Of a DNA stretch of 64,000 nt, positions 14,327 through 22,243 are shown piece by piece. Each line of letters starts with the position of its first letter. Within the stretch, counting starts at the first letter, position 1. The position numbers were made by a program, and so were the translations under genes. The stretch covers positions 29,138-93,137 of the forward strand of contig CANQPP010000003.1 of the NCBI GenBank assembly GCA_947625765.1, written 5' to 3'. The stretch is from an uncultured Clostridia bacterium (GTDB lineage: Bacteria; Bacillota; Clostridia; Christensenellales; UBA1750). Under the pieces are notes generated by a model, which did no database searches, was not told the origin of the DNA, and saw nothing but the letters and a program-made list of their open reading frames with translations.

Positions 14327-14522
14327 ACCTGCATCCTCCTTGGCGGTCGAATCGGAATACGTTTTGTAAAAGGAAGGCGGCATCTTTTTGCCGACCGTGG
14401 GCAGAAGAAAAGCGCCCGTTTCCTGCCCGAAAAACGGAGGGGCCAAGGCCGGAACGCTGTGCTTGCTGCCTGCGGACGGCGTCTCCACTTAAAAATACGG
14501 GGAAAAGCCGCGCGTTTTCCTT

Positions 14523-14686
14523 TCCAACAGCGCTCCGCCCGAAGGGACCTTCCGGGCGACAGTCGCACGGCCCTGTGCCGTGCGCCCAGGCGCGGGGCCT
14601 CTTAAGTTGCCCTTTTGAAGCGCCTTCGGCGGGCAGGCCCTTCTCCGTTTTTGTTTCGGATACCGCGATGCCCGCGCCTCTGTCAT
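14523..14686 (-). ncRNA. Lysine riboswitch (L-box)
   Basis: Minus strand reads ACAGAGGCGC...GAAGGG...GCCGAAG...CTGGG...GACTGTC...GGAGCGCTGT, the L-box landmarks, directly upstream of dapA. Confidence 0.88.
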
Positions 14687-14697
14687 AAGGTACCTTG

Positions 14698-17045: not shown

Positions 17046-17188
17046 GGCCGGCTCATACTTAAAACCCCCAAGGCCCGCGCGTCCAACGCGCGGGCCTTCT
17101 TCTTCCCCTTCTTTCGCGGCCTTGACGGAAGGCGCGCCGCCGTGCTATGCTTCCCTTTGCTAAATATGGAAAAAAGGGGGGCTTTGCC

Positions 17189-17569
17189 ATGCCAGACCTG
17201 TGGCAGAGCGGCATAGAAGAAGAAAGCGAGTACGCCCGGCGCATCCGGGTGACCACCACGCCTGCGCTGGAGGGGTACCGCGTCACCGCGTACTTGGGCG
17301 TCGTCTCGGCGGAAACCGTCCTTGGGACCGGCTTTTTCAGCGAGCTTGCCAGCTGGATGGCCGACCTGTTCGGCGCAGAGAGCCGCACGCTTGCCTGGAA
17401 GATCGACCAGGCCCGGGACTCGGCCCTCAGGAAGCTGCGCGCAAAGGCGCTGGACTTAGGCGCGGACGCCGTCATCGGCACCTCCTTCGCCTATTCCTCC
17501 AACTCCCGCAGCATGGTCAGCGTGATCGTCACCGGCACCGCCGTCAACGCCGCGCCCATCCCCCGCTGA
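17189..17569 (+). CDS. YbjQ/UPF0145 family protein
   Basis: TTTPALEGYRVTAYLGVV, LGADAVIG, VTGTAV. Confidence 0.85.
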   Translation: MPDLWQSGIEEESEYARRIRVTTTPALEGYRVTAYLGVVSAETVLGTGFFSELASWMADLFGAESRTLAWKIDQARDSALRKLRAKALDLGADAVIGTSFAYSSNSRSMVSVIVTGTAVNAAPIPR

Positions 17570-17697
17570 CCCCCGCCCCACCTATCCTCCGGCCCCGGGC
17601 CTCGACCCCGGGGCCGTTCTCTATTTCTCTCCCCCCGCAACGCACTTTCCTGAAGGTCCCCCCCCGAGCGGCAACACTATGCGAGCCCTCCCGCATC

Positions 17698-19072
17698 AAC
17701 GCAGCGAGCAAGCGGGTAGGCGTTTGAAAAACGCCCCGCAAGCGAGCAGGATTCGCGACGAACGCCCCACTTTCCCTCATATCCGCCTTTTCCCAAAAAT
17801 ACCAACCTTTTGACAAAATCCGACATAACACAACCACGTAGCGAGCGAGCTGGCGTTTGCAAAAACGCCCCGCAAGCGAGCGGGATATACCGCGTCGCCT
17901 CTCTTTCCCCTCCTGTTCGTTCCCATTCTCTCAAGAACCGCGCTAACATCATGCCAAACCCCCGAGCCAACGCAGCGAGTGAGCGGCTGGCGTTTGCAAA
18001 ACGCCCCGCAAGCGAGTGGGATTCACAACAGCCGCTCCGTTTTTCCCCAAAAATGCCATATTTTCGACATATTCCGATATTGTGCAACCGCGTAGTGAGC
18101 TATTGGCGTGTTGAAACACGCCACAAGCGAACGGAACTTGCGCTGATCATTCCCCTTTTCCCTCCTGCCCCTTCCCGCCCCACAAAGAACCGCGCCGAAC
18201 TTCTACCAAACCTCAACGCCAACGCAGCGAGCAAGCGGGTAGGCGTTTGAAAAACGCCCCGCAAGCGAGCGGGATTCATGGCTAACCTCCGCTTTCCCTC
18301 ATATCCGACTTCCCCAAAAATGCCGAACTTTTGACAAAATCCGACATTGCGCAGTCACGTAGTGAGCGAGTGGTGCGTTTATAAACGCGCCACAAGCGAA
18401 TGGGATTTACAGCGTCCCTTTTTTCTCCTACCCGTTCCCCTCCTCCCAAGAACCGCGCCAAGACTCTACTCCCCCTCCTGCAACGCAGTGAGCAAGCGGG
18501 CAGGCGTTTTGAAAAAACGCCCCGCAAGCGAGCGGGATTTCAGATGAAAGCCCCCGTTTTCCCCATATCCGTCTTTTTCCAAAAACGCCGAGTTTTCGAC
18601 ATAATCCGATATTGCGCAACCGCGCAGTGAGCGAGTGGCGTGTTTCCAAACGCGCCACAAGTGAACGGGGCTTACGACGAATGCCTCGCTTTCCCTCATA
18701 TCTGTCCTTCCCTAAAAACACCAATCTTTTGACAAAATCCGACATCGCGCAGCCGTGTAGTGAGCGGGTAGGCGTTTGAAAAACGCCCCGCAAGCGAGCG
18801 GGATTCACGACGCCCCCCACTTTCCCTCATATCCGTCTTTCCCCAAAAACACCGGCCTTTTGACAAAATCCGACATTGCGCAGCCGCGTAGTGAGCGAGT
18901 GGCGCGTTTACAAACGCGCCACAAGCGAACGGAACTTACAGCGGCGCCTCTCTTTTTCTTCCTGCCTGTTCCCATTCTCCCACGAACTGCGCTGAGATCA
19001 TGCCGAACCTCCGCACCAACGCAGCGAGCAAGCGGGCAGGCGTTTGAAAAACGCCCCGCAAGCGAGCGGGAC
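17698..19072. repeat. Non-coding tandem hairpin array, 11 cores at ~130-bp period with two linker types (REP/BIME-like)
   Basis: GGCGTTT-loop-AAACGCC type hairpins at 17719, 17852, 17989, 18105, 18242, 18372, 18503, 18637, 18771, 18901 and 19039, each followed by a CAAGCGA-like tail. Confidence 0.92.
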
Positions 19073-19144
19073 TAGCAAAGGAGCCAAACAGGAGGAAAAG
19101 CCTCCGCTCATTTTTCAGCGGCAGCTCGTTTCCCCGACGACGAG

Positions 19145-19216
19145 AAGGGGGGATCGCCAAGGGGGGCGGCGCTCCGCCGCCCCCCTTGGCGGAGCCTCGG
19201 CGCAGCCGAGGAGTCT
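19145..19216. repeat. GC-rich palindromic REP-like element
   Basis: CGCCAAGGGGGGCGGCG-CTC-CGCCGCCCCCCTTGGCG long stem plus CCTCGGC-GCA-GCCGAGG hairpin. Confidence 0.55.
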
Positions 19217-19324
19217 CCCGTACGGGGCACAAAGGCAAGCGAACCGCTCCCCCCGTCCGTGCATCTCACGTCCCCCGTTTTCCGTCGTATCCCTTTTCCC
19301 GCGCCCGCAGGCGCGCGTCCCCGC

Positions 19325-19488
19325 CAAAAGTCGGAAAGCGCAGCGGAGGCGTCGTGAGCGCGCTTGCAAGCGAACAGCCGCAGCAAGCGGGACTTTTTGC
19401 GGAAGAGGAGTCGCGACTGAGTGAGCGAGAGGTGGCGTTTTTTTACAAAAAAACGCCGCCGCGAACGATACGTAGTCCGCGACGACGT
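19325..19488 (-). repeat. Structured element immediately downstream of tRNA-Arg
   Basis: CGTCGTCGCGGAC...GTTCGCGGCGGCG + T-run, then GGCGTTTTTTT/AAAAAAACGCC and further stems. Confidence 0.5.
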
Positions 19489-19490
19489 GG

Positions 19491-19567
19491 TGGCGTGCCT
19501 TGAGGGATTCGAACCCCCGGCCTTTTGGTCCGTAGCCAAACGCTCTATCCAGCTGAGCTAAAGGCAC
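19491..19567 (-). tRNA. tRNA-Arg(ACG)
   Basis: GTGCCTT acceptor, TAGCTCAGCTGGATAGAGC D-arm, TTTGG-CT-ACG-GA-CCAAA anticodon arm, GGTTCGAATCC, encoded CCA. Confidence 0.97.
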
Positions 19568-19602
19568 ATACCATCTGCGCTTGATTTTCAAGCGCAGAAT
19601 CG

Positions 19603-19631
19603 ATTATAACGCCGGGGGATAAAAATGTCAA
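19603..19631 (-). promoter_or_regulatory. SigA promoter of tRNA-Arg
   Basis: Consensus TTGACA-17-TATAAT on minus strand. Confidence 0.85.
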
Positions 19632-19663: not shown

Positions 19664-21981
19664 TTACAGGAGCAGCGACGTTTCCGGCAGGCCTTCCGTG
19701 CGGACGGTCAGGAGCGGGTGGCTCGACTCGCGGCGCAGCACGGCCAGGGCGCGACCCCGCCAGAGCGCGCAGTCGGCGGCGGCGTAGCTGTCCGTTGTGC
19801 AGGGGTCCGCGGAGCCCAGTCCCAGCAGGCGGCAGCCCTGCGTGGAGACGAACACGCGCCTTTCTCCGGGACAGAGCACGCCCTTCTCGTCGCGCAGCTC
19901 GATGTGCACATAGCGCAGCTTGGTGCCGGGCATGTTCTTGTCCTCCGCCCGCAGGACAAGGCGCGCGGGCGTGCCCGCGGTCCGAAGTGTGCAGCGGCCC
20001 AGTTCCCTGCCCTGTTCGTCCAGGGAGACCGCCTCCAGGACGCCGGGGGCATAGCTGACCGTAAAGGCGGCGCGGTGCTCCCGCACAGGCTGCTCGTCCA
20101 GCGTTTCTCCGTTTAAGACAAGGCGCACGACGCCCTCCCTTGCGTACACGGTCACAGCGGCGGGCTTTCCCTCGAAGCCGGGATAGTTCCAGCACTCCAG
20201 CAGATCCGGCCAGCCCCAGCGGGTCGTATACTCCTTCTGGCCGAAGCGGGACGGGTGCTGCACGCCCAGGAAGGGCCGGGTGCGGTCCGTCCAGAGGAAG
20301 TCGCGGTAATGGGACTGGGGCGCTTGCGGCCGGTCAGGTCCAGGTCGCCGCAGTAGGCCAGCCGCCAGGGATAGCCGCAGGGGCTCTCCTCGCTGCCGTA
20401 CCAGCTGCGGCCGATGCCCGCCTCGCCGATGTAGTCCCAAGCGGTCCAGACGAAGTCGCCGATCAGGTAGGGATGTTTCTCGACCGCGCGCCAGTTCTCC
20501 GCGGCCTCCATGGGGAAGGACTCAGTGCCCACGAACACGCGGGACGGGAACAGGCCGTGGTCCTTCTCGTAGCGGTCCAGCAGGTAGTTGTAGCCGCAGA
20601 CGTCCAGCGGGGCCAGGTAGTCCTCGGACTTCATCGCCCAGTAGTCCTTGCCCTCGCCCTCCTCCAGCGTGGACATGGTGTTGAGCGCCATCTCCTGCAG
20701 CTCGGTCTCCTCGAAGAAGCCGCAGATGGCGTTGGTCACGGGGCGGGTCCTGTCCAGCGAGCGGACCTTCTCCGCCAGCCGGGCAGACCACGCGGCCCCG
20801 TCGGACATGCCACTGCGCTCCTGCACCTCGTTGCCCGTGGACCAGAGGATCACGCAGGCGTGGCGGCGGTCGCGGCGGACCATGGCCTCCAGCTGCTGCT
20901 CCCAGGTCTCCTCGAAGTAGAGGTGCTCGTCCGCGGCGCGCTTGCCCTCGCGCCAGGCGTCGAAGGCCTCGTCCACCACGTACAGCCCCAGGGCGTCGCA
21001 GGCGCGCAGGAAGCTGGCCGAGTGCGGGTCGTGGGCGCAGCGCACGGCGTTGAAGCCGTTCTCCTTCATCAGCCGGGCCTTGCGGTATTCTGCGCCGCGA
21101 TGGCTGGCCGTGCCCAGAAGGCCATTGTCGTGGTGGATGCAGCCGCCCTTGAGCTTGACCGGCTGCCCGTTGATGAGCAGGCCCTGCTCGGCGTTCACGG
21201 CCACGGTGCGCACGCCGCAGGGGACCTCCTCGGTATCCAGGACCTCGCCCTTCGGCCCCAAAACCTCGGCGCGCAGGCGGTAGAGGTGCGGGTCTTCCGC
21301 GCTCCAGAGGCGGCAGGGGGAAAGCTGCGCCTCCGCGCAGGCCTGACCGTCTTGGGCTTCGGCTTCCATATCCAGCAGCGTCTCGTCCCCGTCTATCAGA
21401 GAAAAGCGGACGCGGCCGGCCTCGGGAGAGACCTCTGCGTTCAGCCGCAGGGAGGCGCCTTCCTCCGTCAGGGAGATCGTGTCCAGCCAGAGCCCGTCGG
21501 GCAGTATGTAGGCAGGCGCGGCGGCGGAGAGCAGCTCCACGCCCCTGTACACGCCCGCGCCCGGGTACCAGCGGGAGGCGGGCAGGGGCCCTGCGTTCAC
21601 GCGCAGCTGCACGGTGTTCTCGCCCTCGTGCAGCCTTCCCGTGAGCCAGACCACAAAGGGAGAATAGCCGCTCTTGTGCAGCGTCAACAGCTGGTTGTTG
21701 ACCCGCACCTCACACAGGCGGTAAACGCCGTCGAAGTACAGGCAGCAGGGGGACGCCGCGGCCTGCGCATCCACATGGAAGCGCTTCTCGTAATAGCCCA
21801 TGCCGTCGGGATAGAACGCCTCGTTGGTCCCACCGGGCGAGGCCGGGTCGGGCTCCAAGGCGATGCGGAAATCGTGGGGCAGGTCCACGGGGCGGCCCTG
21901 CCCGCGGACGGCGCGGCGGACCCAGTCCTCGTGCCGGGCATATTCAAACAGCCAGTTCGCGTTGAAATCCTGGTGGCGCAT
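19664..21981 (-). pseudogene. GH2 glycoside hydrolase with a one-base frameshift near 20317-20320 (pseudogene or sequencing error)
   Basis: RWYPGAGVYR, KGGCIHHDNG, WSTGNE, GDFVWTAWDYIGE in one frame; after GDLDLTGRKRP the expected QSHYRDFLW continues in another frame. Confidence 0.85.
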
Positions 21982-22243
21982 AAAGAATGACCTCCTTGCA
22001 GTCGAGACCGGGCCGCGCCCGGCGCTACCCGTATGATACCGCAGAACAGGGCGGCCCGTCAATTGAAGGGGAAACAAAAACCCGCCCAGGCATCGGAAAA
22101 ACGCCGGAGCGGGTGGGGGTTCAGGCACGCTTATGCAAGGGAACACCCTTGTACAGAAGCGCATCCTTTGTTCATTGAGTCAATCGACACCAAAACCTTC
22201 TGTTAATGCTTCCAGTTTACCCTTTGGAGATACATGCTCAAAA

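Follow-up and report, generated by a model that had tools for sequence, protein, structure and literature searches.

The object of this study is a tandem array of 11 copies of a non-coding hairpin module, here named H, located at positions 17695..19083 of a 64,000-nucleotide stretch of DNA from an uncultured Clostridia bacterium (assembly GCA_947625765.1, contig CANQPP010000003.1, positions 29,138 to 93,137), which is referred to below as the window. The array is real, is neither a CRISPR nor a coding sequence, and belongs to a lineage-restricted family of modules tied to tRNA trailers. The interpretation preferred here, with a probability of about 0.5, is that H has been amplified in tandem at this place to give a tRNA-linked array that is old and is still being rearranged, H being a module whose family this genome keeps only in spacers between the terminator of a tRNA gene and that of its convergent neighbour. 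The palindrome that forms part of the tRNA terminator/trailer region would be a paralogue of H, the array would most likely have grown and shrunk by unequal recombination or slippage between modules, and a constraint on the single-stranded form would keep the hairpin and its invariant 3' flank CAAGCGA. The host is a rabbit-gut bacterium with a genome of 2.54 Mb in 99 contigs, with 62% G+C and a completeness of 94%, and the window lies on contig C3.

Architecture of the array

The array is composed of 11 H modules separated by 10 linkers in the order A-B-A-B-A-B-A-A-A-B, with a higher-order period of about 264 bp, and all 11 modules are arranged head-to-tail in one orientation. The hairpin cores start at positions 17719, 17852, 17989, 18105, 18242, 18372, 18503, 18637, 18771, 18901 and 19039, with core-to-core periods of 133, 137, 116, 137, 130, 131, 134, 134, 130 and 138 bp. 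Two periods were reported by Tandem Repeats Finder, one of 131 (5.3 copies, 65% matches) and another of 264 (3.4 copies, 74% matches). A first-pass annotation of this DNA had described cores recurring every 116-138 bp, and both the periods and the stem sequences quoted in it were located in the sequence. Its count of 11 units also stands, but a twelfth, related palindrome at 19434-19457, belonging to the tRNA-Arg terminator region, had been overlooked.

The linkers are 56-78 bp long and form two homologous families whose existence and order, already proposed in the annotation, were borne out by alignments. Their mean identity was 72.5% within family A, 67.9% within family B and 54% between A and B. 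No further copy of the A or B linkers was found anywhere in the genome, and the array is therefore an amplification in place.

The non-coding character of the region was also sustained, as only one of the ten periods (138) is a multiple of three and the longest open reading frames (ORFs) overlapping the array, of 146 amino acids (plus strand), 136 (minus) and 130 (minus), do not span it. On the minus strand the A linkers give a short ORF starting with MSDFVKR (one instance was printed and the others were recognized by eye), which was rejected as a coding sequence because two of the six lack ATG, no Shine-Dalgarno sequence was seen by eye, the reading frames are not kept and the linker is unique to this locus. 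A CRISPR array was rejected as well, in agreement with the annotation, because the linkers are homologous to each other and are not unique spacers.

Hairpin types and conservation of the pairing

Two types of hairpin, which track the linkers as two alternating subtypes, were distinguished: type 1 has an inner stem of 7 bp and an outer stem of 4-5 bp, and type 2 has a perfect stem of 10-11 bp. Type 1 hairpins were found in unit 1 (17695..17763, 77.4 bits), unit 3 (17966..18033, 71.9 bits), unit 5 (18218..18286, 73.1 bits), unit 7 (18479..18549, 72.9 bits), with a stem longer by one pair, and unit 11 (19015..19083, 76.5 bits), which is directly followed by another repeat, the P element described below, as at the other loci. 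A type 1 core is also present in unit 2 (17832..17897, 65.9 bits), together with a left flank similar to that of type 2, and in unit 9 (18751..18815, 65.7 bits), following an A linker. Type 2 hairpins are those of unit 4 (18086..18148, 55.9 bits), with a double change from C:G to T:A with respect to unit 10, unit 6 (18353..18417, 72.3 bits) and unit 8 (18618..18682, 67.5 bits), with one T:G pair each, and unit 10 (18882..18946, 74.9 bits), with a perfect stem of 10-11 bp. In both types the left flank resembles GTGAGCGAG and the right flank contains CAAGCGA, whose letters are invariant in an alignment of 18 rows (A1). The flanks had been thought to extend the stem, and this held only for 2-5 extra pairs, the left and right flanks being more alike as direct repeats than as complementary sequences.

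The stem statistics were obtained from a second alignment (A2), with 22 rows fitted to the covariance model of H. In this alignment 97.2% of the 217 stem cells were paired, double changes were present in 6 of the 11 pairs, and 18 cells were changed on both sides. None of 500 shuffles gave a pairing, a number of pairs or cells changed on both sides, or a covariation score as high as those observed. These shuffle counts overstate the support, since the structure guided the fitting of the alignment and the rows share ancestry; when the partners were moved by 1-3 columns as a control, pairing fell to 34-52%. The earlier inference of a constrained structure agrees with these data and with the higher conservation of the hairpins relative to the linkers. 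The compensatory stem changes described in the annotation were found too, but the differences largely separate the two subtypes, with units 6 and 8 carrying G:T intermediates.

The identity of the hairpin plus right flank within each subtype was 90% (type 1) and 80% (type 2), in comparison with 72.5% and 67.9% for the A and B linkers. The linker values indicate that the units are old, and the comparison shows that the hairpin and its flank are conserved, having diverged less than the drifting linkers around them. Arm length, loop size, stem letters and half-site spacing all vary, and the pairing remains intact. The variable spacing of the half-sites argues against a binding site in duplex DNA, and the variable geometry as a whole fits better with a folded single strand that is either recognised or repaired. 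The proposal of a constraint on the single-stranded form is based on this variation of arm length, loop size and stem letters under intact pairing. Any role of the array would probably be played by the folded single strand. Should H act at all, the most plausible forms would be extruded DNA and RNA read through from the tRNA gene, which is strongly promoted.

The H family and its link to tRNA genes

Additional copies of H were detected by BLAST and nhmmer on five other contigs of the genome. With the covariance model of H (R1), 21 strong copies were found, 11 of them in the array and two on each of the contigs C93, C17, C82, C1 and C2. In these 10 further copies at five loci the stem letters are different but the plan of hairpin plus flank is retained, and the array is not an isolated case. 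All 21 copies have the same orientation relative to the tRNA. A tRNA gene is visible at four of the six H loci (Arg-acg, Pro-cgg, Val-cac and Glu-ctc), with H always 3' of it, and the loci on C93 and C17 stop at contig ends within the same composite. The order of this composite is neighbour's terminator, H, P element, H, a structured element named T-module, tRNA terminator and tRNA, and each composite is flanked by convergent terminators. Model R1 produced in addition four weak matches (20-27 bits, E 0.02-0.4), all of them palindromes with a T run and an A run located directly at tRNA 3' ends. The tie to tRNA trailers, the kinship with the terminator palindrome and the adjoining structured element of class-wide distribution had been overlooked in the first reading.

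Beyond this genome, H was found in none of 40 relatives searched by BLAST and in none of 19 other genomes of the family searched with R1, for which the 150 best candidates per genome were scored. A pattern scan of a collection of species-representative genomes gave one match, in a Chlorobiota record, and a scan of JGI metagenome contigs gave 10 loci, all weak (12.5-22.6 bits); both results were taken as chance. No match was found in the phage and plasmid collections searched. The search of positions 17500-19600 against Rfam 15 (gathering score or E up to 5) returned the tRNA and chance matches of microRNA type on the P hairpin only. No conserved neighbour gene was found at the six H loci in the ORF listing, which is noisy in DNA rich in G+C.

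The array in other samples

Logan contigs of one public run, possibly that of the source sample (X1), matched positions 17758-17962, 17962-18241, 18305-18701 and 18777-18968 without any difference, and these contigs break where the units are identical. In runs of three other studies, pieces of the array were found with 0-18 differences, and the joints in their contigs skip 265, 263 or 410 bases or step back 785. These contigs from other studies have a depth of 2.7-4.8 and a likeness of 90-95%, and may therefore belong to relatives rather than to strains. The public runs that contain the locus, which belong to four studies, are labelled as rabbit-gut or gut metagenomes, apart from one with a coded organism, and no RNA run is among them. 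Such arrays occur outside one assembly and differ in arrangement. Unequal recombination or slippage would account both for the A/B higher-order period and for the differing orders of units in other samples.

The variable arrangement between samples is also what would be expected from a neutral minisatellite, that is, junk copies in which pairing is kept by intrastrand template switching or by gene conversion between units, with no selection. Stems that are nearly pure Watson-Crick (208 of 217 cells), linkers unique to the locus and a location in a quiet convergent gap, where repeats can accumulate, are consistent with this explanation. However, repair from arm to arm cannot keep an invariant, unpaired CAAGCGA flank, the five other loci maintain the hairpin-plus-flank plan with different stem letters, and the hairpins are more conserved than the linkers across units that have diverged by about 30%, which makes this explanation quite unlikely. 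Bacterial minisatellites, or variable-number tandem repeats, resemble the array in being made of units of about 130 bp that follow each other head-to-tail in an intergenic gap, with an arrangement that varies between samples, whereas the array has old units (linkers with 68-73% identity), a conserved hairpin and flank, and family copies elsewhere.

Terminator palindrome, T-module and P element

The closest paralogue of H is the T7/A7 palindrome located beside the tRNA-Arg terminator (19434..19457), a weak match of the H model with 21.7 bits. A comparison by eye on the tRNA strand places H alongside the 3' half of the terminator, followed by the T run and the sequence after it. The spacer before the T-module gave a local alignment score of 31 with the 5' part of the A linker, compared with 18.1 ± 2.1 (maximum 24) in 300 shuffles. 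These similarities suggest that the modules derive from the tRNA terminator/trailer region; in the origin preferred here, unequal recombination between them would have produced the array. Copies of the tRNA 3' end in the units were ruled out, since local alignment of tRNA-Arg with the array on the two strands gave scores of 22 and 17, no better than those of shuffles (17.4 ± 2.2, maximum 28, and 17.2 ± 2.4, respectively).

The T-module (19298..19427, modelled on the plus strand) is a covarying element of about 129 nt with a closing stem of 12 bp. RNAalifold analysis of 15 copies from 9 genomes yielded 21 pairs, 14 of them with compensatory changes. In 49 copies, 93% of 990 cells were paired and double changes were present in 17 of the 21 pairs; the observed values were equalled in none of 500 shuffles, and pairing was 33-44% in the slid controls. 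The covariance model of the T-module (R2) had matches in 26 of 121 sampled genomes of the order (E <= 1e-4), where certain weak hits about 73 nt in length are perhaps unrelated hairpins, and in 24 of 151 sampled genomes of the class at E <= 1e-10, including the genome studied here. Up to 13 copies per genome were found, with tandem pairs about 200 bp apart in several genomes. A tRNA gene is located at 500 bp or less from the T-module at 17 of 20 loci in three genomes, always convergent with the element as modelled, and on contig C5 of the genome studied here one copy follows the tmRNA gene at a distance of about 120 bp. The G:U counts by strand were 64 versus 28, with 36 of the 64 coming from a single column. 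The T-module has no match in Rfam 15, and nothing relevant to a tRNA-trailer motif in Clostridia surfaced in the part of the literature that was available.

On the strand antisense to the tRNA, the T-module is followed by a word similar to AAGGAG, often with ATG or GTG about 10 nt further on. In another genome of the same family (G019), two contigs (C27 and C55) end in tandem whole trailer units, formed by T-module and terminator palindrome, with a period of about 190-320 bp, and one of these tandems adjoins a tRNA-Leu(caa) gene; tandem growth of trailers is therefore not peculiar to the genome of the window.

The P element (19100..19245) is a G+C-rich double hairpin repeat with 15 copies in the genome, distributed on contigs C1, C2, C4, C7, C13, C17, C39, C41, C68, C71, C82, C93 and C94 and in the window. 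Its main hairpin is perfect and about 15 bp long, and the second one is small, with stem letters that vary between copies. Many of the copies occupy gaps that have nothing to do with tRNAs, next to the terminators of ordinary genes. By BLAST the P element was found in none of 40 relatives, and its main stem gives a weak alignment with model R2 (8.2 bits). Together with the P element and the T-module, H could constitute one undescribed system of structured RNA or single-stranded DNA at tRNA and tmRNA ends in this bacterial class, generated by terminator read-through, with the array as a high-copy decoy or landing pad for a protein that reads the hairpin plus CAAGCGA, although this broader proposal is considered improbable.

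Transcription signals and strand asymmetry

The array is located in a quiet zone bordered by two intrinsic terminators. On the left is that of the YbjQ-like gene (YbjQ_1 family, 17147-17569, plus strand, Pfam E 5e-26), at 17590..17616 on the plus strand, with 10 G-C pairs and a T-rich tail. On the right is that of the tRNA-Arg (acg) gene (19491..19567, minus strand), at 19453..19488 on the minus strand, with 14 pairs followed by T7. The location between these two genes proposed in the annotation is correct, as both neighbours and their terminators were found. The tRNA gene is preceded by a promoter-like site (19603..19631, minus strand) that agrees with the sigma-70 consensus at 12 of 12 positions, and one promoter-like site, a weak one (9/12), is present inside the array. 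The G+C content of the array is 55%, compared with 62% for the genome.

On the tRNA strand, 6 of the 11 units, all of type 1, can be read as an alternative stem of 5-6 bp followed by T5-6, and the main hairpin is not followed by a T run on either strand. Terminator-like sites in the region numbered 19, versus 5.9 ± 2.8 in shuffles. The role of the amplified modules could be that of a stack of hairpins of 3'-end/terminator type that would insulate the convergent gene.

The linkers are rich in C and poor in G on the plus strand (G 12-13%, C 34-46%), and the GC skew is negative in nearly every 100-bp interval from about 17450 to 19050 (one interval has a value of 0.000), reaching -0.5, so that the excess of C over G far exceeds that of the neighbouring genes. 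This asymmetry of the plus strand resembles Rho-utilisation tracts, or else a purine-rich transcript of the tRNA strand. A Rho gene is present in the genome, and this, together with the C-rich and G-poor linkers, gives a hint, and only a hint, of Rho sites. GGA words are enriched on the tRNA (minus) strand (43 versus 26.6 ± 3.5, a figure inflated by the homologous units), but no CsrA gene was found in this genome, which is 94% complete, and a function as CsrA sponge is not supported. These hints settle neither strand as the relevant one.

According to another explanation, the array would be a multi-unit structured RNA, with transcription starting either at weak promoters in the A linkers or at tRNA-Arg, whose terminator would be read through, much as the RrA/B/F repeats of Escherichia coli arise from terminator read-through. 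This RNA would act as, or be cut into, hairpin RNAs binding a protein that recognises the hairpin plus CAAGCGA. The E. coli tRNA-linked repeats (TLRs) provide the precedent, since those with a terminator on either side are produced by read-through and interact with Hfq and CsrA (PMC8144298). The conservation of the hairpin and flank above that of the linkers, the site behind a tRNA gene with a consensus promoter, the GGA enrichment with its inflated value, and the adjoining T-module, which covaries like an RNA, are in line with this possibility. Against it, G:T pairs and their mirror images account for only 5 of the 217 stem cells, with 3 on the plus strand and 2 on the minus strand, so that the stems carry no strand signal of an RNA; strong terminators flank the array on both sides, the single promoter-like site within it is weak, and neither a CsrA gene in the genome nor a match in Rfam was found. 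A multi-unit RNA is regarded as unlikely.

Mobile elements and known repeat systems

Repetitive extragenic palindromic (REP) sequences and bacterial interspersed mosaic elements (BIMEs) of enterobacteria and pseudomonads are extragenic imperfect palindromes with short conserved flanks, in which two types alternate with a few linkers, often between convergent genes. Neighbours within a BIME alternate in orientation, REP copies occur in hundreds, and the gene of the cognate REP-associated tyrosine transposase (RAYT, a Y1 transposase) is flanked by the repeat. The H array is alike in its extragenic imperfect palindromes, conserved flank, two types alternating with linkers and location between convergent genes, and the mosaic of two hairpins and two linkers is a fair likeness of what the annotation had called BIME/REP-like. 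Membership in this group was not sustained, because H has tens of copies at six loci, all in one orientation and in tRNA trailers only, and no RAYT or other Y1 gene flanked by H was found.

Four Y1_Tnp genes were identified in the genome. They form two IS200-type pairs, with 99.9% and 97.9% identity within the pair, and their end hairpins are unrelated to H. These genes are located at C5:41546-41902, C52:2052-2408, C2:34573-34929 and C92:3743-3979, with a G+C content below that of the genome; the gene on C52 starts about 280 bp behind tRNA-Ala(cgc), and the copy on C92 is 1.2 kb behind tRNA-Leu(caa). No match of the H model was found near any of the four genes. No Rep_trans gene was found in the genome, and a Y2_Tnp search of the genome gave no match, its control being silent too.

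The annotation had also proposed that H is a single-stranded DNA hairpin substrate for a trans-acting HUH transposase; in the form considered here, a Y1 enzyme would spread and amplify it. The extragenic hairpin with short conserved flanks, its clusters with alternating linkers, as in BIMEs, and the four Y1_Tnp genes would fit this proposal, but these genes are of IS200 type and none is flanked by H, and the 21 copies at 6 loci have a single orientation and are all in tRNA trailers. Such a transposase-driven origin is consequently very improbable. The H copies would be neither dedicated RNA genes nor a mobile element with its own enzyme.

The closest known kind of repeat is that of the E. coli TLRs, such as the tyrT/tyrV repeats and rrA/rrB/rrF. 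Repeats behind E. coli tRNA genes have been known since 1978, most of them without an assigned function; the function of TLRs is largely unknown, some members are produced by terminator read-through, and their hallmark is a repeat 3' end that duplicates the last 18-19 bp of the tRNA or rRNA preceding it (PMC8144298). Both TLRs and H are repeated non-coding units directly behind tRNA or rRNA genes at several loci per genome, and such a position directly downstream of these genes was found for four of the six H loci, that of the array included. Unlike the TLRs, the array lacks a 3'-end copy of that type, has 11 units versus one to five per E. coli locus, lies beyond a strong terminator, and has a covarying hairpin as its core. 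With no H-flanked RAYT gene and no tRNA 3'-end copy, the array is therefore not a member of either the REP/BIME group or the E. coli TLRs.

Evaluation of the proposed origin

Several observations weigh against the interpretation of the array as an old amplification of trailer-derived modules under structural constraint. The best match of R2 in the array reached 7.3 bits, so that the units are not T-modules, a reading of them as degenerate copies also being rejected on this value, and their relation is one of common sub-motifs; descent from the trailer is then left to local similarity, namely weak palindrome matches and one local alignment. The terminator-like form is limited to type 1 units and is missing from type 2 units and dispersed copies, and read-through into the array may be slight, as good terminators close both neighbouring genes ahead of it. 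In addition to the overstated shuffle counts mentioned above, intrastrand template switching in palindromes could preserve pairing without selection. Finally, no H was found with R1 in two genomes of the same genus, both of them fragmented (190 and 160 contigs), which makes an old array with 30% linker divergence hard to date.

Neighbouring genes

The ORFs scanned beside the array encode NIF3-like, Ogt, YbjQ-like and glycoside hydrolase family 2 (GH2) proteins (Pfam). With NIF3-like, Ogt and GH2 genes further out, the setting is that of an ordinary chromosome. The GH2 gene upstream of tRNA-Arg reads as two overlapping ORFs (window 19664-22164, minus strand), one of which (20152-22164) contains the N-terminal, middle and TIM-barrel domains, and the other (19664-20440) DUF4982 and the C-terminal domain 5; this split may be due to a frameshift or to an assembly error. 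A lysine riboswitch aptamer was found at window 14520-14690 on the minus strand (58.8 bits).

Biological significance

The array extends the theme of tRNA-linked repeats to a distant gut lineage, in which the hallmark is a covarying hairpin instead of a copy of the tRNA end, and it is unusually long. It has also led to the T-module, an element outside Rfam that roughly one in six genomes sampled from the class carries behind tRNA genes. If H, the P element and the T-module did form one system, it would couple the rate of tRNA transcription to another process, as proposed for E. coli RrA/B/F. If the trailer elements are expressed, they would represent a large unexplored class of RNAs linked to stable RNAs, and if they are not, they would be a clean example of hairpin repeats accumulating in quiet zones bounded by terminators.

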